From NCBI RefSeq assembly GCF_000020025.1, contig NC_010628.1:5550001-5582000 (forward strand): a DNA stretch of 32,000 bases, read 5' to 3'. Below, one piece after another: positions 6,228 through 31,406 of the stretch. Positions within the stretch are counted from its first letter, which is position 1. Every line of letters begins with the position of its first letter. This stretch comes from Nostoc punctiforme PCC 73102. GTDB taxonomy: Bacteria > Cyanobacteriota > Cyanobacteriia > Cyanobacteriales > Nostocaceae. Position numbers and translations under genes: made by a program. Under the pieces are notes generated by a model, which was given only the letters and a program-made list of their open reading frames with translations, had not been told where the DNA came from and did not search any database.

Positions 6228-7664
6228 TTACCCCGCCCACTGTTTCGCCCAAGCAAGAGTTTGATGCACTTGCTCAATTGTCGAGGCTTCGCAGTAGAGC
6301 CGTAAAACTGGCTCAGTCCCGCTAAACCGAATCATTAACCAGCTTTGATCGGCGAGGCGATATTTGTAGCCGTCAATTGTTTGGCAATCAATTACTGCTA
6401 ACCCTGCAATTTCTGTTAAGGGTTTGGTTTGCAGCTGTTGCAAAAGACGCGATCGCACTTCCATACTTGCTAAGGGTAAATCAATGCGATCGTAAGCTGA
6501 GGTAAACCCTGTTTGTTTTTGCAAGTAGCGATTATACTCGCCTAAATCCAAACCAGATTCTACGATCGCCTCTAGGACGTATAAAGCTGACAGCAGGGCA
6601 TCGCGTTCGGGAATATGACTGCCATAGCCAATTCCTCCCGATTCTTCGCCACCTAGCAACACTTTTGCTACTAACATTCTGTCAGCGATGTATTTATAAC
6701 CAACTGCTGTCTCAAAGACTGACAGGTTATGCAGTGCTGCTACAAGGGGCATCAAGTCGGAACCACTGACAGTTTTGACTATTTCACCACTAAAGTTGCG
6801 CCGCAGAGTTAGGTGGTCGATTAATATCGGTATTAATACTTGGGAACTTAGGAAGTTTGCTTCCCCATCTACTGCTGCAATGCGATCGCAGTCTCCATCA
6901 AATACCAACCCCACTGTTAAACCTGATTTATCGGTTTCTCGGTGAGTCTTGATGACTTCAAATAGCTTTGAAAGGTATTTAGGTAAGGGTTCCGGCGCAC
7001 CGCCACCAAAAAGGGGGTCGCGTTGTGAGTTGATTTCTTTGACTTGATTGCCTAGTAGTCTCGCCAATCCGCCAGCCGCAGCGCCATGCATGACATCTGC
7101 AAATAACGTCAATTTGCCAGATGCGATCGCTTCTCGAAGTTTGGCGATATCAACTTTACGTTCTAGTGCTTGGGTATAACTGGGCCAAGGATCGAATTTC
7201 TCTTGCTTACCTGGGGTAGCTGCTAGAGGTACTCCCACTGACAACTGCTCTTCTATCTTTTTTGTGACTTCTGACGGTACCGATCCACCAAAATAACCCT
7301 TGACTTTTAAACCCAAATATTTACCAGGGTTGTGGCTGGCCGTAATTACCAGCGCCCCTAAAGCATTGAGTTCTTTTGCTGCCCAACTATAAGCTGGGGT
7401 TGGAGCATAGTCCTCGCTCAATAGCACATCAAATCCCACAGCACTGACAGTATCGGCGACAGCACGAGCAAAGTCTTCAGCCATGAATCGGCGATCGTAA
7501 CCGACAATTATTGTCCGGCTACCCACCGTAGAAAAATACGTATCATATAATACTTTTGCGGCAACTGGCGCGACCAGGGCTAGACGTTCAAAGGTGAACT
7601 CGTCACCGATAACGCCCCGCCAGCCGTCTGTACCAAACTTAATTGAGTTAGTTACAACTGGCAT
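6228..7664 (-). CDS. Alpha-D-phosphohexomutase family protein (phosphoglucomutase/phosphomannomutase)
   Basis: 478-aa ORF with FGTDGWRG at the N-terminus, active-site loop TASHNPGKYLGLK, metal-binding DGDCDR and GEESGG sugar-binding loop. Confidence 0.9.
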   Translation of the reverse strand: MPVVTNSIKFGTDGWRGVIGDEFTFERLALVAPVAAKVLYDTYFSTVGSRTIIVGYDRRFMAEDFARAVADTVSAVGFDVLLSEDYAPTPAYSWAAKELNALGALVITASHNPGKYLGLKVKGYFGGSVPSEVTKKIEEQLSVGVPLAATPGKQEKFDPWPSYTQALERKVDIAKLREAIASGKLTLFADVMHGAAAGGLARLLGNQVKEINSQRDPLFGGGAPEPLPKYLSKLFEVIKTHRETDKSGLTVGLVFDGDCDRIAAVDGEANFLSSQVLIPILIDHLTLRRNFSGEIVKTVSGSDLMPLVAALHNLSVFETAVGYKYIADRMLVAKVLLGGEESGGIGYGSHIPERDALLSALYVLEAIVESGLDLGEYNRYLQKQTGFTSAYDRIDLPLASMEVRSRLLQQLQTKPLTEIAGLAVIDCQTIDGYKYRLADQSWLMIRFSGTEPVLRLYCEASTIEQVHQTLAWAKQWAG

Positions 7665-7890: not shown

Positions 7891-10800
7891 CTAATCGCTA
7901 AGTATTCCAGCATTGTCCAGATTTGGATGTATTAGCTGCTCTACCTCGGCAGCTTTTTCACTCAAATCAAGCTCTCTGTAAATTTGCAGACTTTCAGTTA
8001 AAAACTGTATAGCAGTTGCCTCAATATCTGATTGATGATGCTCAGAGCGGCTCAGGTAGATTTCGCCCAAGAGTTTACGAGATGAAGCTTCTAGTTTCCG
8101 GCGATTATATTCTTGAAAAACTTGGAGTGATTCTTGGGCTAGTTCTTCGGCTCGCTCAATATTTTTTAATACGCTGATTTCCAGATAAGCACGAGCGATA
8201 TCAAGAGCTTCATCGGCTCGATTTAATGTTTGCCCAAGTTCGGCAAGATATGTTAAGCCAGTATTATAATATTCTTCAAATTGGGCAATTTCTTTTTGCA
8301 GTAATGAGTCGTCAAAAGATGATATGCGTATGCGTTCTGACCAAATTAAGCTAAAGATAATGTAGTCGTAAGCAAGATTTTCTTTATAGTCTCCTGTGCT
8401 ATTTATTTGAATGGCTTGAAGGATATTTTGTTCAGCTTGCGCCAGTAATTCAAAAGCTACTGCTCTATCTGAGGTATTCTTTGCTAGCAAGCGTTGATTA
8501 TCACCAATTGCTCTATGACATTTAGCTACATCCTGAGTTAAATCTAGTTGCTGGTACAAGTTGTAACTGTACTGAAAATACTCTAATGCCTGCTCATACT
8601 TATCCCAGACTCTATAAATGCGTCCTAGCCAATAATAAGCATTAGCTATTTCGGGTTGGTTATCTAGCGATTGATGTAGCAAAAGATATTGTTTTTGATA
8701 TTCAACTGCCTGTTCATATTTACCCCAATTCAGGTAGCAATAAGCTAACCAGTCCCATTGATTAGCTACATTTTTGTCTTGACCCAATTGCTCATAGAGG
8801 TCGCGGCTTTGTTGGAAATAAGTGATCGCTTTTTCATATTTTCCCCAAGTTTGATAGATGCGACCTAATTGATGGTAAGTCACAGCTATCAATGATGTGT
8901 CATTTAATGTCTGACGTATGATCAAACATTGCTGTTGACACTCTAATGCCTGTTCATATTTGCCCCAGTTGCTATAACAATCAGCTAGCCAGTACCATAA
9001 GTTAGCGACATCCTTCTCTTTGCCCAATTGCTCATAGAGATCATAGCTTTGTTGAAAATAGGCGATCGCTTGTTCATATTTGCCCCAAGCTTGATGAATC
9101 GAGCCTAGTTGAAAGTAGGCACTAGCTATACCTGCTTGGTCTTCTAACTTTTGACGTTGTGCCAAGCACTTTTGCCCACACTCCAGTGCTTGTTCATATT
9201 TATCCCATTCTCGGTAGCATCCAGCCAAGTTGTACCACTGGCTAGCTACATTCTTCTCTAAACCTAATTGCTCATAGCGTTCACGGCTTTGTTGAAAGTA
9301 GGGGATCGCTTGTTCATATTTACCCCAAGCTTGATAAATTCGACCTAGTTGATTGTAGCCATCCGCTATATTTGTTTGGTCATCCAGTTGTTGACGGCTT
9401 GCTAAATCTTTGAGTTCATATTCGACTGCCTGCTGATATTTGCCCCAATCCCGATAGCAACTAGCCAGCCGATACCATAGATCAGCTACATTCTTTTCTT
9501 TACCCAATTGCTCATAGAGGTTACGGCTTTGTTGAAAATAGGCGATTGCTTGTTTGTATTTGCCCCAAGCTTGATGAATCGAGCCTAATTGAAAGTAGGC
9601 ACTAGCTATATCTGGTTCGTCTTCTAACTTTTGATATTGTGCCAAGCACTTTTGCCCACACTCAAGTGCTTGCTCGTATTTTCCCCATTCTCGGTAGCAC
9701 CTAGCTAAGTTGTAGCACTGATTAGCTACATCCTTCTCTTTGCCCAATTGCTCATAGAGGTCACGGCTTTGTTGGAAATAGGTGATCGCTTGTTCGTATT
9801 TGCCCCATACTTGATAGATACGTCCTAACTGATGATGAGCAAGAGCTATTCTTATTTGGTCATCTATCTGTTGGCGAATTGCCAAATCCTTTTGCTCACA
9901 CTCTACGGCTTGCTGATATTTACCCCAATCACGATAGCAATCAGCTAGCCAATACAACTGGTTAGCCATATCTTTCTTTTTACCCAATTGTTCATAGAGG
10001 TCACGACTTTGTTGGAAGTAAACGATCGCTTGTTCATATTTTCCCCATGCTTGATAGATGTAGCCTAAGTGAAAATACGCCAAAGCCACTTGTGATTGGT
10101 CTTCTAACTTTTGGCAAATTTCTAAATCCTTGAGTTCGCAATGGAGTGCCTGTTCATATTTACCCCAATCGCGATAGCACCCAGCTAGGTTGTACCACTG
10201 ATTAGCCACATCTTGCTCTTTGCCCAATTGCTTATAAAGGTCATGGCTTTCTTGGTGGTAGGCGATCGCTTGTTCATATTTGCCCCACTCTTGATAAGTT
10301 CTACCTATATTCCATAAATCACTTGCTTCATCTTCTGGCTTACGAAGCTCTCTGTCTATAGCTAACGCCTGCTGGAAGCATTCTAGTGACTGCTCGTATT
10401 TGGTGTGTAAGCGATGACAAATACCTCGATTTCTCCAAAACAACAGAAAAGCAGATGGATGAATATATAAAGCTAGTTTTTCAAAGCATTCCTGATAGTA
10501 GTCAATTGCTTTATCAAATTTATCTTGTTCCTGATAACAAGTTGCAATTGACCAAGCTATGTAAGCACTGTGCCTGAAATTTGGCTGAACATCGATTTTT
10601 TCTAATAGCTCAACAGCTTTTGTATATTTATCTGTACGAATATAAGATATTGCGGTGAGTAAGTTTAATGCCCTTTGAGAGTCCTGATCGCCAACATAAT
10701 TTTCCACACTATTTTCTAAAGCAGGTGTCATTTCTTCACCTAGTTCTTTAACCAATTCTCTAAGACGACAAAATATATTAGGCTCTAGCTGATTAACAAT

Positions 10801-13338
10801 ATCAATGGTACAACTAACTAATCCTGCCCCTGCTTCACCACAAGCAACATAAAGAATAGCTGTCTGTGCTTTTACCCGTATTTCTTCAGCAAGTGTTGAG
10901 TCATTAGCAAATTCTTTCAGTCTTACCAGAACCTCACCTTTCTGGTTAAATAGTTCAATTTGGCGTAACAGCCTTAACAGTTGTTTAGTTGTATCATCCT
11001 CAAAATCTGTATCTAAAACAAGATAACTAATAACTAATTTTTGAATTAGCTTTTTGCGACGACTGCTATTTAGCTCAACTTGAGTTAAAACCTCACCAGC
11101 AAATAATAAATCTTTCAACCGTAATTCCGACTGCTTACAGTTAGTAGTTGATTCTTCTTGCAAATCTGACCAGATGATAATTGCATCCTGGGAAGATGCA
11201 TTTTTTATTTTTAACTTACCACCTTTAATTACAGGTTCATAAGCCTCAAGGTTACTGAAAAGCTGCTCAACCAGCTTATTAGCCTGTTTCGGAGAATAAA
11301 TTCCGTAATAGCCTAAAGCTAGTAGAATTGGCTCATTCCAACGCGGCTCATGCAAATGTTTACGGATAATTGCTAAAATATCGCTTACTTCATTGTCAGC
11401 AATATAACGTGCAGCAAAATACTCCTCAAACGTCAGGTGCATAAAGCCGTAGACTCCAGGCGCACGTTCCACAAATAGACCTGTGGTTTCCCGCACTTTT
11501 CGTAAAAACTCCTGCACGGCAAGCCGCACTGAGTCTGATTCTAGATTAGTATCATTTAGTTCTGCTAGTTTTGCTGCTAACTGTTGTTCAACTTCTTCCT
11601 CAGTGACTAAACCAGAGGGCTTCTCCTCATGCATCCAGTAAGCCAGTGGTGCTAAAAATGCCACTACTTCATTTTGGTTCAGCAGCACTTTCGGAGCATC
11701 TGGCAACTTCTTACCTAGCTGCCAATCTTCCGTCAAGGTTTGTACTGCCAATTCATAAAGTTTCACCCGACGGTTAGGTAGGCGTTCACCATTGCGGTGA
11801 ATCAATGCCAAAATTGTCAACAGTAAAGGGTTCGCTGTCAAGCGCTTTACACCCTCATTGTCTTTAATTGCCTCTAAAATCTTCCTTGCTTGGTCATCTC
11901 CTGCTCTTTGCCATTGTGCCTCACTAGCTTCTGGCTGCTGCGCTCGTTCTATCGCCAAACACCAGCGTTCCAAGAATTTTTCTACCTGTTCGCTACCCAT
12001 ATCTTCAACAGTGAACTCAGCAAAACGGCTGCTCAGTTTCACATCGCGGTAGCCAGCTATGCGGCTGGTAATGACAAACTTATTATTAGAGAAAGCATTC
12101 ACAAACTGATCAATTCTTTCCACAATCAGCCTGCGGCTTTCTTGTTCAAATACCTCATCTAGACCATCCAGCAGCATTAAGCACTGCCCTTGACGCATTT
12201 TTTCTAATAGTAGCGTCGCCATCTCAGTTCCCGCTTCTGCTTCATCTTGAAAGTAAGCTTCCCACTGGCGGTAGAATTGGCGCAGATAGTCCAGCAGTCT
12301 TAACTCTGGTTCTTGTTGCAGTCGTTCTGCATAATCGGCAATACGAAAGAAAATTGGCAACAGAGCTTTACCCAATTCTTCTTGGGGTTCACCACCTATT
12401 ACTATTTCATTGCCATCACGTTTCGCTGTGGCAAAATGTAGCGCTAGATAACGCAGTAACGTTGTCTTTCCCGCACCTGGAGCGCCGAGAATCACACAGT
12501 ATTGATTCTCCCGCACTGCATGAGATAAATCAATTCTCTGTGTTACTGTTTTGGTGCTAGTAGTGGGTATTGAACTTAGTAAAACTGGTTCGTAATAAGA
12601 AGGTTCGTCTAAATCGTAGGGACTAGAGATGTTCATGCTAAACCTATGTTCAGCTTTGCGAAATGTAGTCATCTCTTGGTCTAGTTTCGACGTTTCTGTA
12701 ATCTGCTGTCGCCTTACTGCTTGCAGTGAAACATAAATTTGATCCAAAAAAATATCTACTTGGCGCTGGACTTGCATCACACCGCTAATTTTGAGATAGG
12801 AATTCTCAGCTATCAACCACTCCAGATAAGGATAAAACAGAGGATTTACAGGTGGACGTGCCTCAAATTTCACTAACTTACCTCGCCAATCCCAGAAATC
12901 AGGCGCACGGTTACGAAATTCTTCTAAAAATTCCTCTTTATTTAGCCAAAAAATTATGACTAATTCCCGACCAAATAGCGAATCTCTCCCTAAATTCAAC
13001 TGCTTCATCTCTTGTTTTAGGCGTGATGTTGGCAGTTGGTCAATTCCAAACGCCATTATCAATTTGCGTTTAGTTTGAGGATTATGCAGCCCAGTTTCAT
13101 CTAAACTGTAGAGAAAGTTATACAGTGAGTTATCACTATAAAAGAAGTTCTGAGGTTCCTGAAAAGTATGATCGCTATGAGATAAAAGTAACTTGATTTC
13201 CTCGACTACCGGATGCTGTGGCCCACTCTCCGGTGCAATAGCAAAAATTGTCGTTGTTCCACTAGATAGTTCTAAGAAACTAACTAGTTTATTTAGCTCT
13301 GTTGCGTCATTTGCACTTATAGATTCGTTAGAAGCCAT
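7891..13338 (-). CDS. NACHT-family STAND NTPase with C-terminal TPR array (1815 aa, NLR-like)
   Basis: Walker A ILGAPGAGKTTLLRYLA (aa 283-299; G285 at nt 12486). Walker B CLMLLDGLDEV (aa 386-396). NACHT-typical LTANPLLLTILALIH. At least 15 repeats of 40 aa (WGKYEQAI.YFQQSRDLYEQLGKEKDVANQWYNLA.CYR). N-terminal ~160 aa are unassigned. Confidence 0.9.
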   Translation of the reverse strand: MASNESISANDATELNKLVSFLELSSGTTTIFAIAPESGPQHPVVEEIKLLLSHSDHTFQEPQNFFYSDNSLYNFLYSLDETGLHNPQTKRKLIMAFGIDQLPTSRLKQEMKQLNLGRDSLFGRELVIIFWLNKEEFLEEFRNRAPDFWDWRGKLVKFEARPPVNPLFYPYLEWLIAENSYLKISGVMQVQRQVDIFLDQIYVSLQAVRRQQITETSKLDQEMTTFRKAEHRFSMNISSPYDLDEPSYYEPVLLSSIPTTSTKTVTQRIDLSHAVRENQYCVILGAPGAGKTTLLRYLALHFATAKRDGNEIVIGGEPQEELGKALLPIFFRIADYAERLQQEPELRLLDYLRQFYRQWEAYFQDEAEAGTEMATLLLEKMRQGQCLMLLDGLDEVFEQESRRLIVERIDQFVNAFSNNKFVITSRIAGYRDVKLSSRFAEFTVEDMGSEQVEKFLERWCLAIERAQQPEASEAQWQRAGDDQARKILEAIKDNEGVKRLTANPLLLTILALIHRNGERLPNRRVKLYELAVQTLTEDWQLGKKLPDAPKVLLNQNEVVAFLAPLAYWMHEEKPSGLVTEEEVEQQLAAKLAELNDTNLESDSVRLAVQEFLRKVRETTGLFVERAPGVYGFMHLTFEEYFAARYIADNEVSDILAIIRKHLHEPRWNEPILLALGYYGIYSPKQANKLVEQLFSNLEAYEPVIKGGKLKIKNASSQDAIIIWSDLQEESTTNCKQSELRLKDLLFAGEVLTQVELNSSRRKKLIQKLVISYLVLDTDFEDDTTKQLLRLLRQIELFNQKGEVLVRLKEFANDSTLAEEIRVKAQTAILYVACGEAGAGLVSCTIDIVNQLEPNIFCRLRELVKELGEEMTPALENSVENYVGDQDSQRALNLLTAISYIRTDKYTKAVELLEKIDVQPNFRHSAYIAWSIATCYQEQDKFDKAIDYYQECFEKLALYIHPSAFLLFWRNRGICHRLHTKYEQSLECFQQALAIDRELRKPEDEASDLWNIGRTYQEWGKYEQAIAYHQESHDLYKQLGKEQDVANQWYNLAGCYRDWGKYEQALHCELKDLEICQKLEDQSQVALAYFHLGYIYQAWGKYEQAIVYFQQSRDLYEQLGKKKDMANQLYWLADCYRDWGKYQQAVECEQKDLAIRQQIDDQIRIALAHHQLGRIYQVWGKYEQAITYFQQSRDLYEQLGKEKDVANQCYNLARCYREWGKYEQALECGQKCLAQYQKLEDEPDIASAYFQLGSIHQAWGKYKQAIAYFQQSRNLYEQLGKEKNVADLWYRLASCYRDWGKYQQAVEYELKDLASRQQLDDQTNIADGYNQLGRIYQAWGKYEQAIPYFQQSRERYEQLGLEKNVASQWYNLAGCYREWDKYEQALECGQKCLAQRQKLEDQAGIASAYFQLGSIHQAWGKYEQAIAYFQQSYDLYEQLGKEKDVANLWYWLADCYSNWGKYEQALECQQQCLIIRQTLNDTSLIAVTYHQLGRIYQTWGKYEKAITYFQQSRDLYEQLGQDKNVANQWDWLAYCYLNWGKYEQAVEYQKQYLLLHQSLDNQPEIANAYYWLGRIYRVWDKYEQALEYFQYSYNLYQQLDLTQDVAKCHRAIGDNQRLLAKNTSDRAVAFELLAQAEQNILQAIQINSTGDYKENLAYDYIIFSLIWSERIRISSFDDSLLQKEIAQFEEYYNTGLTYLAELGQTLNRADEALDIARAYLEISVLKNIERAEELAQESLQVFQEYNRRKLEASSRKLLGEIYLSRSEHHQSDIEATAIQFLTESLQIYRELDLSEKAAEVEQLIHPNLDNAGILSD
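8560..10440. repeat. Intragenic tandem repeat, 120-nt unit (240-nt A/B super-repeat), encoding the 40-aa TPR units
   Basis: The c/tCCCA motif (antisense of the Trp-Gly/Asp codons of WGKY/WDKY) recurs at 8603 + 120n up to 10283. That is 15 units with no indel. Long stretches are near-identical (e.g. tgttcatatttgccccaagcttgat at 9071, 9311, 9551). Alternate units carry HIP1 or near-HIP1 (gcgatcgc). Confidence 0.95.
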
Positions 13339-13377
13339 TTTTATTGATGAATAACTGCTGATTGCAAGAGAAAAAAG

Positions 13378-14679
13378 CTATTTTTGGGGAGAGTTAGCAG
13401 CTTGCCAACGCTGTAAATCTTCTAATAGAATAGGGTTCACATCAAACCAGGATTTTTTACTGCCATTGTAATAACCTAATACAAATTTATTTTGCAAAAG
13501 CTCATCACAAATCACAAACTGACCTTTGTTAGGCAAACTATGGGTATTAGTAGTTAAACAACCTGTGCGGTGAACTTTATCTAGTTCAGGGAAATGGTAA
13601 TCGCTTAAGTTGTATTCTCTACGAACTTCTTGCACAGCCTCTTTAGCAACATCTAAGTCTACATATATCAAATCTAGCCTTAAAGAAACTTCACAAGCTG
13701 TACGAGCTAGTCGCACCAAGTCACGCATCACACCGCCACTTTTTTCCATAATTAGTTCTAGGGCATCTGGATTAAATAAACCCTTATAAGCAACACCCAA
13801 ACTTGCTAAACGCTTATTAATTACACTATTCAGAATGTCTCTACCAACTTGATTAGGGATTGTAGTAGGACATAAATTTTCATCGCACTCAAATACTGGT
13901 GGATTAGTTAAATCTAAACATTTTTGAAAGCTTTCCATTGGTTGACGAAAACTCGGAGAATACCTGAGTGAAATCGGGATCGCATATATAATATGGCAAC
14001 TTAGCTGAGTCAGCAATGGACTAGCGAACATTTCCAAAGCTGTAACTTGATCGTGTCGGTCAAGACCATCTACAATCACCAGTAACTTCTGCTTATTTCT
14101 TTTTTCGGCAGCTTCTATGATGGCGTTAACTCGCTCAATGATTTTACTAAGCTGCGGACGAATATTGTAAGTTTTAGTAACTTTTCGAGTTACACCTTGC
14201 TTAAGAATTACACCTAGTTTTTTGATAATTTCTGGAACTTCAAGACCAGTGTTTTCAGCGTCTTCATCTTGATAAACTACAGTTTTTAAACTTTCGAGTA
14301 AATCATTTAATAAATCGTCTTTTAAACCCCATTCTTGTTGAATAACTTTTTCAAAAATTTTAATTCCAATTAGTACTACAACCTCAGCATAGCCGATGTT
14401 ATATTGTTCTAGAGCAGTGACAGTATCAATCCAAATTACTGTATACTTGCTGTTCAGATTTTGTTCTAATCGCCGCAATTCTGTGGTTTTGCCACCACCT
14501 CTGTGACCTGCTAATAAAAATTTAGCTGGGTCGTCTTCCATATCCAAAAAAGTGATTAAATTCTCTACAGGACTATTAGCTCGCTGGACATAAAAATTTT
14601 TCAGGTCTTCAGCTGTAGTCAGTGGTTCCTCTGGCTTAAAAAGCTGGTAAGCAGGCTTCCAAAAACTGGTATTACTCAT
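13378..14679 (-). CDS. P-loop ATPase, ORC/Cdc6-like AAA+ (433 aa)
   Basis: Walker A LLAGHRGGGKTTELRRL. Walker B KLLVIVDGLDRHD. Lid/sensor-2-like SGGVMRDLVRLARTA. Stop is 39 nt upstream of the NACHT gene start on the same strand. Confidence 0.8.
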   Translation of the reverse strand: MSNTSFWKPAYQLFKPEEPLTTAEDLKNFYVQRANSPVENLITFLDMEDDPAKFLLAGHRGGGKTTELRRLEQNLNSKYTVIWIDTVTALEQYNIGYAEVVVLIGIKIFEKVIQQEWGLKDDLLNDLLESLKTVVYQDEDAENTGLEVPEIIKKLGVILKQGVTRKVTKTYNIRPQLSKIIERVNAIIEAAEKRNKQKLLVIVDGLDRHDQVTALEMFASPLLTQLSCHIIYAIPISLRYSPSFRQPMESFQKCLDLTNPPVFECDENLCPTTIPNQVGRDILNSVINKRLASLGVAYKGLFNPDALELIMEKSGGVMRDLVRLARTACEVSLRLDLIYVDLDVAKEAVQEVRREYNLSDYHFPELDKVHRTGCLTTNTHSLPNKGQFVICDELLQNKFVLGYYNGSKKSWFDVNPILLEDLQRWQAANSPQK

Positions 14680-14900
14680 GGTAAGAAATCTTAGTTTATC
14701 TCAGTATAACTGGGTAATTTCCCTCTGTAGATTGCTAGAAGTGAAAAACTTTATACCGTAGTCCTAAACAAGACTTTATCTTACTTTGATCGCAGATAAA
14801 TTCTTGGTGTGCGATCGCTTGTTTATATAACTTGATTAGCTGTGTAGATTTATAGACAAAAAGTTGCTTACCATTCGTCTAGCGGCTCGTTGCCAAATAT

Positions 14901-14983
14901 TGTATATGCACAAATATACAAACATTAATAATCCTTAATAGTTAATACTATTAAGGATTGTTAATATGAGCAAAAACTGCTCA
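14901..14983 (-). other. Cluster of three hairpin-forming palindromes just downstream of the RHH gene
   Basis: tgtatat-gcacaa-atataca (14901-14920). A 19-bp stem at 14924-14942/14947-14965 with one T-G pair and a 4-nt loop. tgagca-aaaac-tgctca (14967-14983). Confidence 0.6.
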
Positions 14984-14999
14984 CAAACCTGATTTTTCC

Positions 15000-15479
15000 T
15001 TAAAAATCATCGAGAAACTGACTAAGGCGACTGATTACGGGGTCAACCTCTTGAGGAGGGGTAGCAACAGTATAAGAAGTATTATTTACTACTTCTAATT
15101 GAGTTGGAGACGGAACGAACGAGCGATCGTTGACTATGAGCGCTAGTTGTGCAACTTGTTGAGAAAGTTGCAGTAGATGATGTTCCATCGCCTCCAAACG
15201 ATTAGATCCCTTGGCAAAAAAGCGTTCCTCAAGTCCAGCCACTTGACGTTGCAGTTCACCGATTTGTTGTTCAACCGGTGTTGTTGCTGCTGTTTGTGGA
15301 GCAGGTTGTACAGATTCCGGTACACATAAAGATTGCCACAAGGCTTCTTTACAGAGGTCGCTGAAAGTCTTGTCTGGTTGTTTTTCCAAATAACTTTCTA
15401 CTTGCGCTAACAAGCTTTCATCAGCAAGCTCTGGGTTGAACGTGACGGATTTAACTACCTTTTTTGACCATTGGAACAT
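15000..15479 (-). CDS. ParR-like adaptor candidate: N-terminal ribbon-helix-helix-like segment, central coiled coil, acidic/hydrophobic C-terminal tail (159 aa)
   Basis: KSVTFNPELADESLLAQVESYLEK...TFSDLCKEALWQSL fits a strand-helix-helix pattern. Heptad region IGELQRQVAGLEERF...LLQLSQQVAQLALI. Tail DPVISRLSQFLDDF. Starts 5 nt after the stop of the ParM-like gene. Confidence 0.55.
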   Translation of the reverse strand: MFQWSKKVVKSVTFNPELADESLLAQVESYLEKQPDKTFSDLCKEALWQSLCVPESVQPAPQTAATTPVEQQIGELQRQVAGLEERFFAKGSNRLEAMEHHLLQLSQQVAQLALIVNDRSFVPSPTQLEVVNNTSYTVATPPQEVDPVISRLSQFLDDF

Positions 15480-15484
15480 CAGCT

Positions 15485-16654
15485 TTATGCCCTAGCAGCG
15501 CGATTGGAGGATAATTGTGCCTCTCCATAAATATACTGCCCCAAAGCATTCGCCTGACGGGAAGGTGCTGCTAAATGAGCATTAATCTTTGCTTCTTTGA
15601 GTAGACGTTGAACGTCGTCCCAGAAGAACTCACCACCGCCACCAGTGAGAATCACATCAGTGACGCGTTCTGGCAACCAGGCTAGCACACGGCTACAGAT
15701 TTCACGCGAAAACATCTCTGTAAGGTTGGGAAGAAAATCGTCTAGGTTGGTGGGCTTGCTAGCGCCTTTAGGACGGTAATAGCGTTCACCTCTGGGTTTG
15801 TTAACGGCAGAAATCAGCGCGAGAGATTGACTATCTGCTCCCTCGATTTCGGCAGACACCAATTCATAAAACTTATTCATCCCGAAGTCTTCGCTCTTAG
15901 AAGCACCTCTGGCAAAACGGAAGTTATCTACCATCAAAAGATCGACAGTTTGATGTCCAATATCAACGATCGCTACCGATATTTTTGTAAAATCGGGACT
16001 GCTAGGACTTTTCTTCGGTTGAGCTTCAGACCACAACAGGCTACCGTAGCCTTCTGGCATTACCCATACCTTACTCACATTCAACGATATAGATTCGCCT
16101 CGGAAGTTCAATACATGAGGACCACCTACTTGGCTAATCAACTGTGCTTTTTCTTTTTCAAATTGCTCTAAAGAAAGAAAAGGCAGACCAAGTACAACTG
16201 AGATATCGTCTCTGAGTTTGAAGTAGCCAGCACTTGCTAACACTTTTACCAGTGCAGCCTCTACCTTAGATTGGCCGACTCCTAGATTCGCCCCAAAATC
16301 TGCTGCTAGTTGACCAACAGCATATCCATTTCCTTGATACTCCAGCCACAAATCCATTAAAGGGTCAGTAGCTCTGGCTTCAAAAACACCACCACGTACT
16401 TGTTCTATTGACATCTGCTTAACGTTGGCAGGTACGAATACTACACTGCCGGGTTCACGACTCACACAAGTTTTGGTGGAAGTTCTACCTAAATCAACAC
16501 TGAGAATGGTTTTCCCGGAACCACCGCCTGACTTGGTAGTAGTGGGAGGATTATTATTAACAGCATTTATGGGAGTCGTCGATGCTAACGGCTGCCTATT
16601 CATGGGTATAGCAGCACTATTCATAGGGTTAGCGGCGGAAGGTTGGTCTGTCAT
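15485..16654 (-). CDS. ParM/Alp-family actin-fold ATPase (389 aa)
   Basis: Actin-fold nucleotide motifs: phosphate-1 ILSVDLGRTSTK, phosphate-2 VAIVDIGHQTVDL, adenosine VILTGGGGEF. ParM-like YAVGQLA and VMPEGYGS. About 50 aa of low-complexity N-terminal extension (alternative starts at Met11 and Met18). Confidence 0.8.
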   Translation of the reverse strand: MTDQPSAANPMNSAAIPMNRQPLASTTPINAVNNNPPTTTKSGGGSGKTILSVDLGRTSTKTCVSREPGSVVFVPANVKQMSIEQVRGGVFEARATDPLMDLWLEYQGNGYAVGQLAADFGANLGVGQSKVEAALVKVLASAGYFKLRDDISVVLGLPFLSLEQFEKEKAQLISQVGGPHVLNFRGESISLNVSKVWVMPEGYGSLLWSEAQPKKSPSSPDFTKISVAIVDIGHQTVDLLMVDNFRFARGASKSEDFGMNKFYELVSAEIEGADSQSLALISAVNKPRGERYYRPKGASKPTNLDDFLPNLTEMFSREICSRVLAWLPERVTDVILTGGGGEFFWDDVQRLLKEAKINAHLAAPSRQANALGQYIYGEAQLSSNRAARA

Positions 16655-16894
16655 GAAAGCTCCTAGTTCAAACTTAACTGTAAAAAGTTGTCATGCTCAT
16701 CTTACAAAAATGCGAGCAACCAGAAATTCTAGGTTGCGTCAAGTGTAGCTAGAAATACGCCAAAAATTAATTTTGACCATATCTCCGATGGGCTCATGCC
16801 TTCGTACATCTAGTATTATTTGGCATAGTGTAGGCGAATTTTGGCCAGATGTAACCCCTGCTTTCACTGCTTTCAAACCAAAAGCGTCCGTATT

Positions 16895-17518
16895 TCATCT
16901 TCTAGTACGTCTTAACTGGCGCTTGAATATCCAAAAAACAAATGCTAGAACCAAACCCCCAAGTACGATTTTGGATACAGGAGCAAGGTACTTGTCCACA
17001 AGTTCATACTGACTACCCAATATGTATCCTGAGTATGTTAGCAAACCCACCCAAGCCGCGCTACCTACTGTTGTGTAAAACAAAAATGGTAGCAAGGGCA
17101 TATTGCTGATCCCTGCGGGAACAGAAATCAAGGTGCGGATTCCTGGTACAAGACGACCAATTAATACTGCTTTTCTACCTTGTCGGTCAAACCACCCTTT
17201 GGCCTTGGTAATATCTTTACTGGATATAGCCAGCCATTTACCATACTTGTCAGCCCAAGCTTTCAAACGGGTTTCGCCCAAAAACTTACCTGGATAGTAC
17301 CAAATAAGTGCGCCCAATACAGAACCCAAAAGCCCTGCGAAAAACACACCAATGATATTTAGCTTTGCCCCTCCTGGTTGATATGGACTTGCTGTAAATC
17401 CAGCCAGTGGCATAATCAATTCTGAAGGAATTGGGGGAAAAAGGTTCTCTAGGAACATTAGTAGGGCGATTCCCCAATAGCCAAAATAGTTGATAGTGTT
17501 AGTTATCCATTCAAGCAT
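16895..17518 (-). CDS. DedA family membrane protein
   Basis: FLENLFPPIPSELIMP and GRLVPGIRTLISVPAG motifs, with multiple TM helices. The tracked start 17611 is TTG; ATG 17518 (MLEWITN) is preferred. Confidence 0.85.
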   Translation of the reverse strand: MLEWITNTINYFGYWGIALLMFLENLFPPIPSELIMPLAGFTASPYQPGGAKLNIIGVFFAGLLGSVLGALIWYYPGKFLGETRLKAWADKYGKWLAISSKDITKAKGWFDRQGRKAVLIGRLVPGIRTLISVPAGISNMPLLPFLFYTTVGSAAWVGLLTYSGYILGSQYELVDKYLAPVSKIVLGGLVLAFVFWIFKRQLRRTRR

Positions 17519-17973
17519 TGAGTCAATTCCTGAAATTGCTGCACTAGTCTTGTTACTAAGATTGAGCCTTAGTTTTTTTAAACAGTAATTATCCCTGCTT
17601 GTTAGAGTCAAGGTAACTTGGCTGCACTAAAAGTTGCATCGCAACTTAAAAATAGAGCAAGACAAGTGGAAGCTAGGGGTCTGTTTGATTAATTTCGAGG
17701 GTTATAAAAGTTCGTAAGTAGCTCTAACCCTTGAAATTGAGCGAGAAATTGCTCACTACGAATCCCACAAAATTAATGAAAAGAACCACTAAGTTTTATT
17801 TTCTAATTTTTTAGATCCCCCTTAGTCAATTTTGTTAAAAGACTAGGGAGGATCTAAAGACTTGATGGCAAATTTAAAAACATGCTTTAGGGTTTTCTTC
17901 TAAGTTGGTGGCTGTGGGAGAGTAGGGAGAAAATTTTACCTTGTCTCCCTCATCCCCCTCATCCCCTCTTCTT

Positions 17974-19044
17974 CTAGGCTGTCGGGGTCAGTGATTGTAC
18001 CCTTGGTTCCGATTGCCAGTCTAATGGATTCCAAACTCGATCTTCCAGCGCCATCTGCTCAATCAAACTTGCCAGTCTCAGGGCTTTGAGAGCTTGTTCG
18101 CCACCTACTGAGGGTTGATTGCCACCATGTACACAGTTGACAAAATGTTCTAATTCTGCGCTCAAAGGTTGAATATTGCTGGTGTAGACTTTTTCAATCA
18201 CACCATCTTGCCTGTAAAGTACTTGTCGGTGGTCGGTGAGAGAATTGGCAGCTGTTTGTCGGTGAATCAAAATTTCATTCTTGAGAAAATCCGCCTCAGT
18301 AAATGAATTTTTGCAATGGGCGACAATCCGGCGAATTTTTCGGTGAGTGACTTTACTGGCAGTCAGAGTAGCAACAATACCATTGGCAAATCCCAAAGTG
18401 GCAGTTACGTAATCTAAATAACCAGAGTCCAAGGAGCGAGTACCGCTAGCAGTCAATTTTGTGACTGGGGAAGCAGCTAATTCTAAAAGTAGGTCGATGT
18501 CATGGATCATTAAATCCAGCACAACCGAAACATCGTTTGCCCGATCTGAGTAAGGACTCATTCTATGGGCTTCTAGCGCTAGCAATTCCTCCGTTTTCAG
18601 AACTTGGCTCAGTTCTTTAAAAGCTGGGTTGAAACGCTCAATATGACCTACTTGCAGGATACACTGAGACTCTGCCGCCGCATTTACTAGAGACTCTGCC
18701 TCAGAAATACTGGCTGCGATCGGTTTTTCAATCAAAACATGAATTCCCGCTAGCAGACAGCTAATACCCACGGCATAGTGCAGACGGGTGGGAACAGCTA
18801 CACAAACTGCTTCCACAAGGGGTAGCAGGTCACAGTAATCTTCAAAAAAACGCACCTTGTACTTGCTGGCAGTTTCTAATCCTCGTTCGACGTTAATATC
18901 TGCCACTCCGACCAGTTCAACATCTTTCATTGAACTCAGCACGCGAGCGTGGTGTTGTCCCATGTTACCCACTCCAATCACGCCTATGCGGATCGGTCGT
19001 GGCTGGTTGCGCTGTGTATATAGATTCGGTTCTGCCACTGACAT
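17974..19044 (-). CDS. Gfo/Idh/MocA family NAD(P)-dependent oxidoreductase
   Basis: Rossmann motif IRIGVIGVGNMGQHH, then the EKP motif (VLIEKPIA). The tracked start 19080 is TTG; ATG 19044 is preferred. Confidence 0.85.
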   Translation of the reverse strand: MSVAEPNLYTQRNQPRPIRIGVIGVGNMGQHHARVLSSMKDVELVGVADINVERGLETASKYKVRFFEDYCDLLPLVEAVCVAVPTRLHYAVGISCLLAGIHVLIEKPIAASISEAESLVNAAAESQCILQVGHIERFNPAFKELSQVLKTEELLALEAHRMSPYSDRANDVSVVLDLMIHDIDLLLELAASPVTKLTASGTRSLDSGYLDYVTATLGFANGIVATLTASKVTHRKIRRIVAHCKNSFTEADFLKNEILIHRQTAANSLTDHRQVLYRQDGVIEKVYTSNIQPLSAELEHFVNCVHGGNQPSVGGEQALKALRLASLIEQMALEDRVWNPLDWQSEPRVQSLTPTA

Positions 19045-19710
19045 GCTATCTTGCACTATTATTCTCTCCTCAACCACCAAATTTAGAGACGCTACGGCCG
19101 TTGGCGTTTATACTCGAAAGCCAGTTACGATCCGTCTAAAACCATCCAGATGGTAACATAGAGCCTATGTTTATGAAGAATTTCAAAGTTTGCGATCGGT
19201 TCCCGTAATCCAAACATCTTTTGTATAGATAGTTCGGGTTTGTTTTTGATTTTGCACTTTCTACAAAAAATATATGTCTTTTTATTAACTTTAAAACATT
19301 CAGTAAGACTTAAGTGTAAATTCTCCAAAGTTCTCAGGGTCAGCTTCCTCGGTTCGGGCTTATCTCTGGGATACCGTGAGGTAATTAGTTACTGAGAGCA
19401 ATATCCAATTGACAACACTAAAATTACAAAATAGTCAAAAATAACACTTAAGCTTTTTCAAAAAAAATTATCACTGTTTAATGGAAAAGATTTTTGTATG
19501 ATTATTTGCAGTACCTACCGTAGAAACATACTCCTGTAAAGAAACAAGCTATTAGCAGGGTCTTGTAGAGAAGATATCACAGCACTTTTTGAGAGGAACT
19601 GGTGTGGCTTGACCATCACTAAGAGACGTTTAGGAATCTTTTTGGCATTGCTTCCTGGCATCTTGTTAAGGTGTAATTTGGCGATTTAAAATTCAAAATT
19701 TGCAATCGAG

Positions 19711-22067: not shown

Positions 22068-22769
22068 CTACCTTCCCACAGGAATATTCGATGCCTCTAA
22101 CTTCAATTGTTGAGCAGGATAATCAGTAAGAGCAAGTGATATTTTCTTGACATCATCAAGTAAAGCTGTGGGAATGCTCACTGTACCTGAAAATGCCGGG
22201 CCATTGACAGGTAATTCCGTTGGTAAACCCTCTGTACTAGCACTCAGGGTTCGTCCTTTATCATCGGTAACATCTAAAAAACTATACAAGAAGCGCACAG
22301 AATCCTTACCTTTGTTCTGCATTTTCACTTTCAGTAGCAAGTCACCACCGGAGTAGCGAGCAGATTGCACAGTCATAGTTACACCCTCACTTTGGGCAGT
22401 AACTGGAAAGCCTGGTAGGGGTTTTTCTTCAACCACTTCTGGGGGCTTTTCTTCTGGCTTCTGCTTGCTGCTATTGGTTTCTTCGTCATCTTCCTCTAGC
22501 TTTTCCGATTTAGCAGCCTTGGTTTTACCATCAATTCGCGCCTTGACAACTTTCAGAATCTCTTCCTCTTTTAATAGCACTAGCCCTCCCTGTTGAGAGG
22601 CATTTGCCTTATTGCTGGCAAATTTGGTTGTGGGACGACCATCGGGTGTGGTAACGCCTTTAAGTGCTGAACTCCCCAGTTCAAACCCCAAAAACGCGCT
22701 CACAGAACCGGCTCCCATCATCAGGATTAACAAAATCAAAGTAAGAAGTACAGTAGAATTTATTTTCAT
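22068..22769 (-). CDS. Hypothetical membrane-anchored/exported protein with K/E-rich linker and C-terminal beta-rich domain
   Basis: Start taken at ATG 22769 (MKINSTVLLTLILLILMMGAGSVSA hydrophobic leader). Charged linker KSEKLEEDDEETNSSKQKPEEKPPE. C-terminal alternating pattern VTMTVQSARYSGGDLLLKVKMQNKGKDSVRF resembles DUF4352-type beta-sandwiches (unverified). Confidence 0.6.
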   Translation of the reverse strand: MKINSTVLLTLILLILMMGAGSVSAFLGFELGSSALKGVTTPDGRPTTKFASNKANASQQGGLVLLKEEEILKVVKARIDGKTKAAKSEKLEEDDEETNSSKQKPEEKPPEVVEEKPLPGFPVTAQSEGVTMTVQSARYSGGDLLLKVKMQNKGKDSVRFLYSFLDVTDDKGRTLSASTEGLPTELPVNGPAFSGTVSIPTALLDDVKKISLALTDYPAQQLKLEASNIPVGR

Positions 22770-23059
22770 TGCTGATGAGCTATTACATAAGAATGCTGGG
22801 CTATTTAAGAATAGTGAAGCTTTTGACCTCAATCCTTAAAGGAACTTAATCAATATTAGTCTGTACTATTTCATGATTAAATTATGTAGTATAAAAATTT
22901 GGTAAACTAGTGTCCAGTATTCACACGTGGTAAATTTATGCTATAATTACGGAATTGGCTAAACTCAGTGAATAAAATATTTTCCTCACTCTAAAATTAG
23001 CAAATAAAGTTGACTTAAAGAGTCAAAATAATTGGCTCGTAGGAATCCGAACAAAACAA

Positions 23060-23132
23060 GCGCCTTTGGCCGATTGGGGAGGCAACGAACTCATAATTCG
23101 TCTTCAGGCTGGTTCGATTCCAGCAGGGCGCA
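23060..23132 (+). tRNA. tRNA-like gene with CAU anticodon (Met or Ile2 type), atypical geometry
   Basis: 7-bp acceptor stem (GCGCCUU/AGGGCGC, one G-U). Anticodon arm ACGAA-CUCAUAA-UUCGU. Perfect T arm GCUGG-UUCGAUU-CCAGC. But the D stem has only 3 bp and the variable loop is 6 nt (23102-23107). No encoded CCA. Confidence 0.6.
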
Positions 23133-23285
23133 CTGAATCATCAAAAAGCAGTAATAGAGGGCATGGGGCATTGGGCATGAGCAGTTGTACTGAGCATTGC
23201 TGAAGTGTTGGTTATTAATTATTGTCCTTTGCTCCCCACTACCCCTTATCCCGACAGGGGGCCCCACACTCCCCACTCGCTAATC

Positions 23286-23720
23286 TTACCGAGGTGGTAA
23301 AGTTTCAAACCTGAATTCAGTTCCCACTTTGAGTTTGTTGCTATTCAAACGAGGGGACATAATCAGCGATGTGTCATAAGGATTTGGTAAATCAGGGGTG
23401 CGAATATAAGGATCGTTACCAACTTGCTGAGTCAAGACATCATGATATAAAGTATTAACCAACTCAGCATCGCGAGCAATTTCATTTTCTGGAAAAGAAC
23501 CACCGAAACTAGAACCAGATCCTAGAAGTGAGTCTAGCTGACGTTTGAGACTGCCATTTTCGTAGAAATTGCGATCGTGACTAAAAAAAGCTCGTTCAAA
23601 TACATCACTTGTAGTTTCAGTTCTAGGGGTTTCGGTTTGGGCAAATGCGACTGAGGGAAAAGCAATACCAGCAGCAAGCAGCACCAATAAACCACCAAAG
23701 GTTTTAAATTTTATACGCAC
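23286..23720 (-). CDS. Hypothetical secreted protein (144 aa)
   Basis: GTG start and Sec-type signal peptide MRIKFKTFGGLLVLLAAGIAFPSVAFA-Q. No recognisable motifs. Confidence 0.6.
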   Translation of the reverse strand: MRIKFKTFGGLLVLLAAGIAFPSVAFAQTETPRTETTSDVFERAFFSHDRNFYENGSLKRQLDSLLGSGSSFGGSFPENEIARDAELVNTLYHDVLTQQVGNDPYIRTPDLPNPYDTSLIMSPRLNSNKLKVGTEFRFETLPPR

Positions 23721-24543: not shown

Positions 24544-24615
24544 AGCCAGCAGCGGGATTTGAACTCGCGACCTTCCGATTACAAGTCGGATGCACTACCA
24601 CTGTGCTATGCTGGC
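24544..24615 (-). tRNA. tRNA-Thr (UGU)
   Basis: Reverse complement folds as GCCAGCA-UA-GCAC-AGUGGUA-GUGC-A-UCCGA-CUUGUAA-UCGGA-AGGUC-GCGAG-UUCAAAU-CCCGC-UGCUGGC-U. There is one A-C mismatch in the T stem. Confidence 0.85.
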
Positions 24616-25928: not shown

Positions 25929-26078
25929 AAGATTTAGGAGTCATAATAGCTAGTGTGCAATTGGCTCCTAACTACTTGCTGGTAAAAAATCCGAAATAAA
26001 TGGGTAAAAGAAAAGAGAATATTCTTGCTTTTGCCTTTCATAATTTTTACTTTTCTCTTGTTATGGGGAGTTTTTTGT

Positions 26079-26092
26079 AGTACTAATGTTCT
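26079..26092 (+). promoter_or_regulatory. Cyanobacterial-type LexA box upstream of lexA
   Basis: AGTACTAATGTTCT matches RGTACNNNDGTWCB at every position. It lies 32 nt upstream of the lexA ATG. Confidence 0.75.
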
Positions 26093-26123
26093 AGAGACAT
26101 TAATAATTACTTCCCGCAAATTT

Positions 26124-26729
26124 ATGGAACGTCTAACGGAAGCTCAACAAGAACTTTACGAATGGTTGGCAGAATACATCAGAACGCACCAGCATTCGCC
26201 TTCAATTAGGCAAATGATGCAAGCTATGAACTTGAAGTCACCAGCACCAATTCAAAGTCGTTTAGAACATTTACGCACCAAAGGATATATAGAATGGACT
26301 GAAGGACAAGCGCGAACGATTCGGATTTTGCGTCCTGTTAAGCAAGGTGTACCAATTTTGGGCACGATCGCTGCTGGTGGTTTAATAGAACCGTTTACTG
26401 ATGCTGTAGATCATTTAGACTTTTCTAATTTCGATTTACCTCCCCAAACCTATGCTTTGCGGGTAGCTGGCGATAGCATGATTGAAGATTTAATTACTGA
26501 TGGCGATGTGGTATTTCTGCGTCCAGTAGCAGAACCAAATCATTTAAAAAATGGTACTATTGTTGCGGCCAGAGTTGATGGATTTGGGACGACATTAAAA
26601 CGTTTTTATCGCCAAGGCGATCGCGTTACCCTCAAACCAGCAAATCCTAAGTACAATCCCATAGAAGTCAGTGCTATGCAAGTGCAGGTGCAAGGTTCAC
26701 TGATTGGTGTTTGGCGTGGTTACAACTGA
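26124..26729 (+). CDS. lexA: LexA repressor (S24 peptidase)
   Basis: N-terminal wHTH (LTEAQQELYEWLAEYIRTHQHSPSIRQMMQAM). Ala-Gly cleavage context TIAAGGLIEP. Catalytic Ser in GDSM and Lys in LKRF. Start moved to ATG 26124; the tracked 26025 extension is hydrophobic read-through of the promoter. Confidence 0.93.
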   Translation: MERLTEAQQELYEWLAEYIRTHQHSPSIRQMMQAMNLKSPAPIQSRLEHLRTKGYIEWTEGQARTIRILRPVKQGVPILGTIAAGGLIEPFTDAVDHLDFSNFDLPPQTYALRVAGDSMIEDLITDGDVVFLRPVAEPNHLKNGTIVAARVDGFGTTLKRFYRQGDRVTLKPANPKYNPIEVSAMQVQVQGSLIGVWRGYN

Positions 26730-28286: not shown

Positions 28287-28373
28287 TGATAAGCCAAATT
28301 GTATTTTTTATAAAAATTTTCGACTTTTGAAAAAAGATGCATTAGGTATGAAATAATAAGATTATGAGTTTGG

Positions 28374-28424
28374 TCATAATGGGATGTAAGTAGCTTTAAA
28401 AATTTGACTTACATCCCATTATGA
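28374..28424 (+). terminator. Perfect 18-bp stem-loop downstream of the helicase gene
   Basis: tcataatgggatgtaagt (28374-28391) and acttacatcccattatga (28407-28424) with a 15-nt loop. No trailing T-run, so a terminator role is uncertain; it could be an operator or RNA element. Confidence 0.45.
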
Positions 28425-28587
28425 TCTAGATTAATTACAATATATATTAACAGAAAATAATTAAAGAATAAAGTGTTTTTTCAAAGAAAATTAGGATTTT
28501 AAAGATAACGCTAATAGTGAGTTTACGGAGGCTATTCTAGCACTAGAGAAAGTTAAAATGTAGAAAAACTATATTTTAAAATCCGAT

Positions 28588-28761
28588 ATGTCACAAGAGG
28601 CAAATATCGACGATGTACAAGAGCCAATAACTAGCGCACCACCGGAAGTACGGCAAATTATTGAGCGGGTATGGAAGCTGGAAAAAGGCAGGCTAGATAA
28701 GAAGATTAACAGCCATGTAAATGACAATATTTTGGACATTATTAAGGAGGAGGTGCGATGA
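28588..28761 (+). CDS. Small acidic helical protein (57 aa), not in the supplied ORF track
   Basis: ATG 28588 gives MSQEANIDDVQEPITSAPPEVRQIIERVWKLEKGRLDKKINSHVNDNILDIIKEEVR*. Its TGA overlaps the ATG of the next gene (gcgATGAag). A strong SD for the next gene (aaggaggagg) lies in its 3' end. Confidence 0.45.
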   Translation: MSQEANIDDVQEPITSAPPEVRQIIERVWKLEKGRLDKKINSHVNDNILDIIKEEVR

Positions 28762-30830: not shown

Positions 30831-30926
30831 TTACAGCAGTTTTGATGTCTTTGACCCACATCTGTCATAAGGAAGTAGGCGAAAATATTTTTACAGGAAT
30901 GATACAAAATACTTCTCAAATTCTTA

Positions 30927-30955
30927 TTCTCCGTGTTCTCTGTGCCTCTGTGGTT
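30927..30955. repeat. GC-rich dispersed repeat copy (left, inverted)
   Basis: ttctccgtgttctctgtgcctctgtggtt is similar to the reverse complement of 31332-31362. A related sequence occurs at 1540-1557. Confidence 0.6.
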
Positions 30956-31031
30956 TTATTTTCCGTTACCTGTACATAAATCTGATTTTAGTTACAGTTG
31001 AGAAAATTGGCTTTTGAAAAGGAATAAGATT

Positions 31032-31370: not shown

Positions 31371-31406
31371 AATTGAGATTATTACTAACTCATTAAAAGA
31401 TATTTT

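Follow-up and report, generated by a model that had tools for sequence, protein, structure and literature searches.

The 32,000-nucleotide stretch of Nostoc punctiforme PCC 73102 DNA analysed here (NC_010628.1, positions 5,550,001 to 5,582,000; the window, whose own numbering is used for coordinates below) carries two adjacent minus-strand genes that almost certainly form the fcmB-fcmC (corM-corR) operon, the descendant of a ParM/ParR partition module that now acts as a membrane-bound cell-shape cytoskeleton. fcmB (= corM; 15485..16654) encodes a 389-aa, filament-forming actin-like ATPase and fcmC (= corR; 15000..15479) a 159-aa adaptor that tethers these filaments to the membrane. This is a known system, published in 2025 under two names: Npun_R4472/Npun_R4471 of N. 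punctiforme were named fcmB/fcmC (Nguyen et al., mSphere 2025, PMC12645912), and the orthologues of Anabaena sp. PCC 7120 were named CorM/CorR (Springstein et al., bioRxiv 10.1101/2025.06.27.661541). A sequence-only reading of the window had described the pair as a chromosomal ParM/ParR-like module outside any plasmid or phage context. Its observation is real but not new: both open reading frames (ORFs) are present in the window ORF list, direct reading of the sequence places a 5-nt spacer (AGCTG, 15480..15484, minus strand) after the fcmB stop and before the fcmC start as the operon junction, and descent from a ParM/ParR module is borne out.

The identity of the pair follows from equivalog models that both proteins pass, from exact matches to deposited sequences and from a full-length match to a solved structure. 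FcmB scores 732.6 bits against a cut-off of 300 with NCBIfam NF052678 (morpho_FcmB, 'filament morphology actin-like protein FcmB'), residues 1-381 covering profile positions 1-373 of 373, and FcmC scores 237.4 bits against a cut-off of 90 with NF052682 (morpho_FcmC, 'filament morphology membrane protein FcmC'), residues 5-159 covering profile positions 1-159 of 159. Exact-sequence look-up returns ACC82839.1 for the 389-aa protein and ACC82838.1/WP_012410799.1 for the 159-aa protein, all from N. punctiforme PCC 73102, with both identical proteins encoded on contigs of 8.23-8.33 Mb. FcmB further aligns over its full length to PDB 9rmi, 'CorM' (E 2.8e-223). ACC82839.1 and ACC82838.1 are very probably Npun_R4472 and Npun_R4471, the locus studied by Nguyen et al. 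(2025); against that published pair the proteins are identical, gene order, strand and chromosomal setting are alike, and no difference was detected. The locus combines matches to both FcmBC equivalog models with a chromosomal operon in which the actin gene comes first, an actin N-terminus of disorder-type composition, a conserved adaptor tail and a Nostocales host. Public database annotations nonetheless label the pair ParM/ParR.

FcmB: an actin fold behind a conserved N-terminal extension

The Pfam domain of FcmB begins at residue 53, and the families ALP_N (3.8e-16) and MreB-like_C (1.1e-8) are both matched above their gathering scores. The sequence-only reading had credited the protein with the full set of actin-fold motifs, and all three were found: DLGRTSTK at residues 54-61 (phosphate-1), VDIGHQTVD at 230-238 (phosphate-2) and LTGGGGEF at 336-343 (adenosine), with core residues that are invariant across 40 homologues. 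Similarity to ParM of E. coli plasmid R1 is of superfamily level, as the best ParM-type models give partial matches far below their cut-offs (PRK13917, 55 bits against 417; PRTRC_D, 46 against 215).

Preceding the fold is an N-terminal extension (residues 1-48; 16511..16654, minus strand), of which about 40 residues are predicted from composition to be disordered. Within residues 1-50, 76% are P, S, T, N, Q, G or A, compared with 43% in the core, and 10% are hydrophobic or aromatic. The low-complexity extension of ~50 aa, which the earlier reading had noted as unusual for ParM, is a distinguishing feature of the FcmB clade. It is not uniform in its conservation. Among 40 Nostocales homologues, residues 1-20 (MTDQPSAAxPMNxAAIPxNR), P28 and N30 vary little or not at all, with M1-P5, A8, P10, N12, A14, I16, P17, N19, P28 and N30 fully invariant, while the Pro/Thr/Asn/Gly linker that follows (residues ~31-47) varies in both sequence and length. 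In Anabaena CorM the disordered residues 1-40 slow filament growth and lower ATPase activity (Springstein et al., 2025). The searched portions of the text of both papers handle residues 1-40 as a single disordered region and make no mention of conservation within it. The pattern seen here suggests that the conserved first 20-30 residues could form either a docking motif for a further partner or an autoinhibitory motif, carried on a flexible linker, and we offer this motif as a lead for specialists.

FcmC: a putative membrane helix at one end and a putative filament-binding helix at the other

The first eleven residues of FcmC (MFQWSKKVVKS; 15447..15479, minus strand) are predicted to form an amphipathic membrane-binding helix. 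Residues 1-10, MFQWSKKVVK, are invariant in 25 of 25 homologues and identical at the start of the Trichormus/Anabaena-type protein, and the helix has a net charge of +3 and a hydrophobic moment of 0.54-0.59. In Anabaena, vesicle binding by CorR depends on its first 10 residues and is lost when residues 1-10 are deleted (Springstein et al., 2025). The assignment as a membrane anchor is supported by this deletion and by the conservation rather than by the hydrophobic moment. This predicted helix, the key innovation, had been overlooked by the sequence-only reading, which described the 159-aa protein as having a ParR-like layout.

The segments on which that description was based are present in the protein, and its two halves fare differently. 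The acidic amphipathic tail, proposed to dock onto the actin filament, stands. FcmC residues 144-159 (EVDPVISRLSQFLDDF; 15003..15050, minus strand) form a putative FcmB-binding helix, predicted as helical at 147-156, in which E144, D146, P147, I149, R151, S153, D157, D158 and F159 are invariant among 25 homologues. The tail is the most amphipathic 11-residue stretch of the protein (hydrophobic moment 0.73), and the motif EVDPVISRLSQ[F/Y]LDDF is common to FcmC and its Trichormus counterpart. Docking through a near-identical helix has been demonstrated for Anabaena CorR, which recruits CorM through residues 150-162 and fails to do so when they are deleted (Springstein et al., 2025).

The ribbon-helix-helix half of the layout is seen only in a low-confidence model. 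An AlphaFold2 monomer built from a 25-sequence alignment (mean predicted local distance difference test score, pLDDT, 59; predicted template modelling score, pTM, 0.22) places helices at residues 21-33, 39-52, 67-119 and 147-156, in agreement with the published CorR layout, the first two following an extended N-terminus. Residues 12-52 (15324..15446, minus strand) could tentatively be labelled a ribbon-helix-helix-like segment, since two short helices after an extended N-terminus would fit such a fold; an (RHH)2 dimer has been predicted for CorR (Springstein et al., 2025). Residues 67-119 (15123..15281, minus strand) are modelled as one long coiled-coil-type helix. FcmC matches no Pfam family, and searches of the PDB with the single sequence and with a profile return no ParR, the single sequence matching nothing and the profile only coiled coils (such as reovirus sigma-1, E 3.5e-4). 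Kinship with ParR is thus not detectable by sequence.

The published cytoskeleton and its likely mode of action

Three aspects of function have been demonstrated in N. punctiforme itself, namely the deletion phenotypes, the FcmC-dependent membrane localisation of FcmB and the interaction of the two proteins. In-frame deletion of fcmB or of fcmC produces wider, rounder vegetative cells and hormogonia, resembling a rodA mutant, and lateral labelling with fluorescent vancomycin is lower in both mutants (Nguyen et al., 2025). FcmB forms membrane-associated circumferential filaments that become cytoplasmic once fcmC is deleted, and two-hybrid assays detect contact of FcmB with FcmC and also self-contacts of each (Nguyen et al., 2025). 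The operon is induced in hormogonia and is co-transcribed from start sites upstream of fcmB (Nguyen et al., 2025).

Filament structure, ATPase activity, lipid binding, the absence of DNA binding and control by MinC have been demonstrated in Anabaena only. CorM is an ATPase that assembles, in an ATP-dependent manner, into dynamically unstable antiparallel double filaments; MinC clears these filaments from the cell poles; and deletion of corM or corR rounds the cells (Springstein et al., 2025). We carry these results over to the N. punctiforme locus because FcmB and FcmC are 87% and 71% identical to their counterparts and share identical terminal motifs with them. FcmB and CorM are orthologues that align over their full length, and FcmC was compared with the 162-aa partner encoded directly after the CorM orthologue in Trichormus, with which it shares its first 16 residues and its tail. 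The same 5-nt junction and the same flanking backbone genes recur. The differences are small: the variable linker of FcmB is 6 residues longer within the disordered region, the linker preceding the tail has 3 residues fewer in FcmC, and downstream N. punctiforme has an ATPase insertion of 7 kb that is absent from Anabaena.

Taken together, a mechanism can be proposed in which FcmC, probably as a dimer, would be seated on the cytoplasmic membrane by its amphipathic N-terminal helix and capture FcmB through its C-terminal helix, so that FcmB filaments would lie under the membrane, across the long axis of the cell. The disordered FcmB N-terminus would act as a brake on filament growth, MinC would exclude filaments from poles and septa as it does in Anabaena, and the resulting array would be required for a rod or barrel shape. 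The most likely downstream step, which we favour on balance within this explanation, is guidance of lateral peptidoglycan synthesis by the array, where the link to the cell-wall machinery is one that we infer.

Such an arrangement resembles MreB in that membrane-associated, antiparallel actin-like filaments run around the cell and their loss abolishes the rod shape. FcmB nevertheless belongs to the ParM/Alp branch and is no MreB paralogue (Nguyen et al., 2025), requires a separate adaptor to reach the membrane, and shows dynamic instability in place of synthesis-driven motion.

Several points weigh against this reading or parts of it. Two-hybrid assays found no contact of FcmB or FcmC with MreB, MreC or MreD (Nguyen et al., 2025). 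For lipid binding, the negative mobility shift assay, the filament structure and MinC control, the measurements are of the Anabaena proteins rather than those of the window, and all functional evidence derives from two publications, of which one is a preprint. On the side of our own analysis, 947 of 10000 shuffles reach the hydrophobic moment of the FcmC N-terminal helix, which is thus statistically unremarkable, the FcmC structure model is of low confidence, and the mapping of accessions to locus tags is drawn from organism, names and gene order.

Alternative readings of the operon

The alternative that survives best concerns the output of the same system, and holds that the filaments act mechanically, as a girdle compressing the cell into a slimmer rod, instead of guiding wall synthesis. 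Thin filaments that are dynamically unstable probably could not maintain shape against turgor, which counts against a girdle. The proposal was made by the N. punctiforme authors, as hormogonia narrow fast (Nguyen et al., 2025), and both the circumferential course of the filaments and the lack of detected contact with the MreB, MreC and MreD proteins speak for it. The reduced lateral vancomycin labelling of both mutants speaks against it, however, and the Anabaena authors prefer spatial coordination of peptidoglycan synthesis as the output (Springstein et al., 2025). The sequence gives no ground for choosing between the two outputs. We therefore consider a girdle unlikely, though well ahead of the readings that follow.

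A working type II (ParMRC-like) partition system, with the small protein bound to a site on DNA and growing actin filaments pushing chromosome, plasmid or other cargo apart, is very improbable. The attraction of this reading lies in the superfamily of the actin (ALP_N and the partial PRK13917 and PRTRC_D matches), in the ParR-like layout of the partner and in the ParM/ParR labels of public annotations. The resemblance to ParM/ParR/parC of E. coli plasmid R1 is also genuine: in both, an actin-fold ATPase gene precedes that of a small adaptor whose C-terminal helix binds the actin, and R1 ParM filaments likewise show dynamic instability (Springstein et al., 2025). FcmBC differs from R1 ParMRC in lacking a parC iteron array, in being chromosomal and in the extra disordered N-terminus of its actin, and the CorMR adaptor binds membrane instead of DNA while its filaments are antiparallel and not polar (Springstein et al., 2025). 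Of the features of ParMRC, then, the locus has ParM/Alp superfamily membership and has neither a parC array nor a plasmid or other mobile replicon as its host.

Direct evidence on DNA points the same way. In an electrophoretic mobility shift assay, Anabaena CorR shifted neither its own promoter region nor E. coli parC (Springstein et al., 2025). Staining with 4',6-diamidino-2-phenylindole (DAPI) revealed no nucleoid defect in the N. punctiforme fcmB and fcmC mutants (Nguyen et al., 2025), and, likewise by DAPI, nucleoid distribution is unchanged in the Anabaena corM and corR mutants (Springstein et al., 2025), so that neither species displays a segregation defect. No centromere-like array was found at the locus: the stretch from 14600 to 17000 has a single tandem repeat, of 2 x 9 nt (16858-16875), and neither flank of the operon contains a multi-copy direct-repeat family. 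Furthermore, the genes occupy a conserved chromosomal backbone, not a replicon in need of partitioning. The suggestions of the sequence-only reading that the module might segregate or position chromosomal or cellular cargo, that its small protein might bind DNA and that it might act with the neighbouring ATPases are contradicted by these published experiments on the proteins or their close orthologues, together with the repeat and synteny checks.

The region upstream of fcmB is better described as a putative promoter and 5' leader (16655..16770, minus strand), free of centromere-like iterons. In a cross-genus alignment, the 115 nt 5' of fcmB, with an AGGAG ribosome-binding site at their end, show conservation reaching from Nostoc to Rivularia, and a block including TACACTTGAC...TGTAAGATGAGCATGA.AACTTTTTACAG...ACTAGGAG is common to Nostoc, Trichormus, Scytonema and Rivularia. 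A scan with the sigma-70 consensus yielded no promoter in the intergenic region upstream of fcmB, site counts being at or below the shuffle expectation. Just 3' of the fcmC stop lie inverted repeats (14930..14983, minus strand), comprising a 13-bp AT-rich, terminator-like stem at 14930-14959 and a 6-bp TGAGCA/TGCTCA stem at 14967-14983. These hairpins are a possible terminator of the operon; the count of terminator-like sites is not above shuffle expectation.

Equally improbable is a four-gene module in which fcmBC works with the two genes that follow it, a KAP-family P-loop NTPase of 433 aa (13378-14679) and a NACHT and multi-TPR protein of 1815 aa (7891-13338), for instance in filament-based signalling or defence. 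All four genes are adjacent on the same strand, and 320 nt separate fcmC from the KAP gene. The pair, however, follows fcmC in just 10 of the 80 Nostoc genomes compared, and is not present in a Nostoc genome with an identical FcmB (L001) or in Trichormus, Rivularia and Scytonema; fcmBC is conserved without it across the Nostocales. Elsewhere this site is occupied by cargo of unrelated kinds, and the hairpins described above intervene after the fcmC stop.

Finally, the reading of the pair as what is left of a decaying integrated plasmid or prophage, without a cellular role, as plasmid ancestry and close paralogues (70-80% identity) on cyanobacterial plasmids might suggest, is ruled out to all practical purposes by the intactness and high conservation of both genes, their fixed chromosomal position, the strong published deletion phenotypes and the absence of integrase, replication, conjugation and phage genes among window ORFs scanned or matched by synteny.

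Gene neighbourhood and an insertion site downstream of fcmC

A relative is encoded at 496 stretches of a species-representative genome collection, and gene order was taken from the best 80 of these loci, all from Nostoc and of at least 93% identity. FcmC is encoded directly downstream of FcmB in 80 of 80 and DedA upstream in 78. The backbone order QueC - GFO oxidoreductase - DedA - FcmB - FcmC - PGM-family mutase - Ham1 is found in Nostoc and in Trichormus/Anabaena and recurs in part in Rivularia and Scytonema, where, as in Trichormus, the 5-nt spacing between fcmB and fcmC is also kept. The genes are thus conserved, with the adaptor in place at all 80 Nostoc loci and the backbone seen in four genera.

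The immediate neighbours are those that the sequence-only reading had described, a DedA/VTT protein upstream of FcmB and the STAND ATPase pair (KAP NTPase and NACHT-TPR protein) downstream of FcmC, and its statement that no replication, conjugation, integrase or phage genes lie nearby also agrees with our results. Among those window ORFs that are 100 aa or longer and were scanned against families, none belongs to a replication, conjugation, integrase or phage family; five further ORFs were placed solely by matches to annotated neighbour loci. The ORFs scanned or matched in these ways are ordinary chromosomal or defence-type genes.

In the window, the KAP and NACHT-TPR pair (7891-14679, minus strand) forms an insertion of ~7 kb between fcmC and the PGM-family gene. 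Because it occurs in only 10 of the 80 Nostoc species genomes and other cargo occupies the site elsewhere, we assign the pair, on its distribution, to a strain-variable insertion outside the FcmBC system. The alternative cargo includes a 169-aa ORF, a caspase-like peptidase, and a restriction-modification system with an IS605-type gene, and the gap between fcmC and the PGM gene has the look of an insertion hotspot that takes up defence-type or STAND genes, which may interest specialists in its own right. Neither FcmB nor FcmC has a match in an anti-phage library, and the ATPase pair has weak ones only (PDC-S20, 2.8e-5; TPR; PDC-S39).

The best matches of the flanking backbone genes are envelope-related, all of them below the model cut-offs. 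DedA and the GFO oxidoreductase lie at 16895-19080 and the PGM-family mutase at 6228-7664, all on the minus strand. DedA scores best with the undecaprenyl-phosphate transporter UptA (135 bits, cut-off 300), the GFO/IDH/MocA oxidoreductase with UDP-GlcNAc 3-dehydrogenase (238, cut-off 450), and the PGM-family mutase with phosphoglucosamine mutase (245, cut-off 439). The probable start of the DedA ORF is the ATG that gives 207 aa (16895-17518) instead of the listed TTG. It is conceivable, but a long shot, that this conserved neighbourhood is functionally tied to the FcmBC cytoskeleton, with envelope-precursor supply or lipid-carrier recycling positioned by FcmBC; if true, this would be the missing link to wall synthesis that both papers leave unsettled. 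The adjacency of the DedA, GFO and PGM genes may instead be merely inherited gene order, since DedA is not at this position in Rivularia PCC 7116 and in one metagenome-assembled genome.

Farther from the operon, the plus strand carries a defence-type run at 26808-31958, made up of a ResIII/DEAD helicase (492 aa), an AAA_23/SMC-N-type ATPase (690 aa) and two ORFs of 118 and 183 aa for putative endonucleases of the Uma2 family, the first of which appears truncated. A LexA-like repressor is encoded at 26025-26729. Genes for tRNA-Met(CAT) (23060-23133, plus strand) and tRNA-Thr(TGT) (24544-24615, minus strand) lie among small ORFs without family match (22068-22832 and 23286-23720), which are conserved beside the CNNM gene across the Nostocales.

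Relatives of FcmB within and beyond the Nostocales

The nearest homologues are all from Nostoc or other Nostocales, and FcmB identity ranges from 82 to 99% across heterocyst-forming genera. In a library clustered at 50%, identity to full-length relatives falls from 84% to 71% and 45%, and then to 31% or less, a distribution consistent with a compact clade that stands separate from generic ParM/Alp proteins.

One group of close relatives is plasmid-borne. Four cyanobacterial plasmids encode paralogues that are 70-80% identical to the FcmB core and have no disordered N-terminus. The two that were examined, Trichormus variabilis ATCC 29413 plasmid A and Nostoc sp. N6 pNPM2, have no FcmC homologue adjacent to the actin gene. 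Each of these two paralogues (plasmid A, L093 4482-6044; pNPM2, L094 4482-6023) has instead a conserved in-frame N-terminal extension, consisting of a hydrophobic, transmembrane-like segment followed by a coiled coil of ~150 residues. The older GenBank annotation of Ava_B0315 (509 aa) includes this extension, while RefSeq sets a later start (366 aa). These paralogues may thus be FcmB-clade actins with a built-in membrane anchor, and their apparent possession of an anchor of their own is a further lead for specialists.

We further note that metagenome-assembled genomes of Symploca sp. encode a 368-aa homologue that is 45% identical to FcmB (L091 6517-7623; L092 3583-4689). The gene lies among small hypothetical genes and without the Nostocales backbone neighbours, and is followed ~225 nt later by a 158-aa ORF that has no family match. 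The Symploca homologue may belong to the clade as a divergent or mobile member.

Implications

The finding is hereby closed as known, and the function first attributed to it is corrected from cargo segregation to membrane anchoring and control of cell shape. The importance of the system lies in the conversion of a plasmid-partition machine into a cell-shape cytoskeleton, one that is tied to multicellular cyanobacteria.

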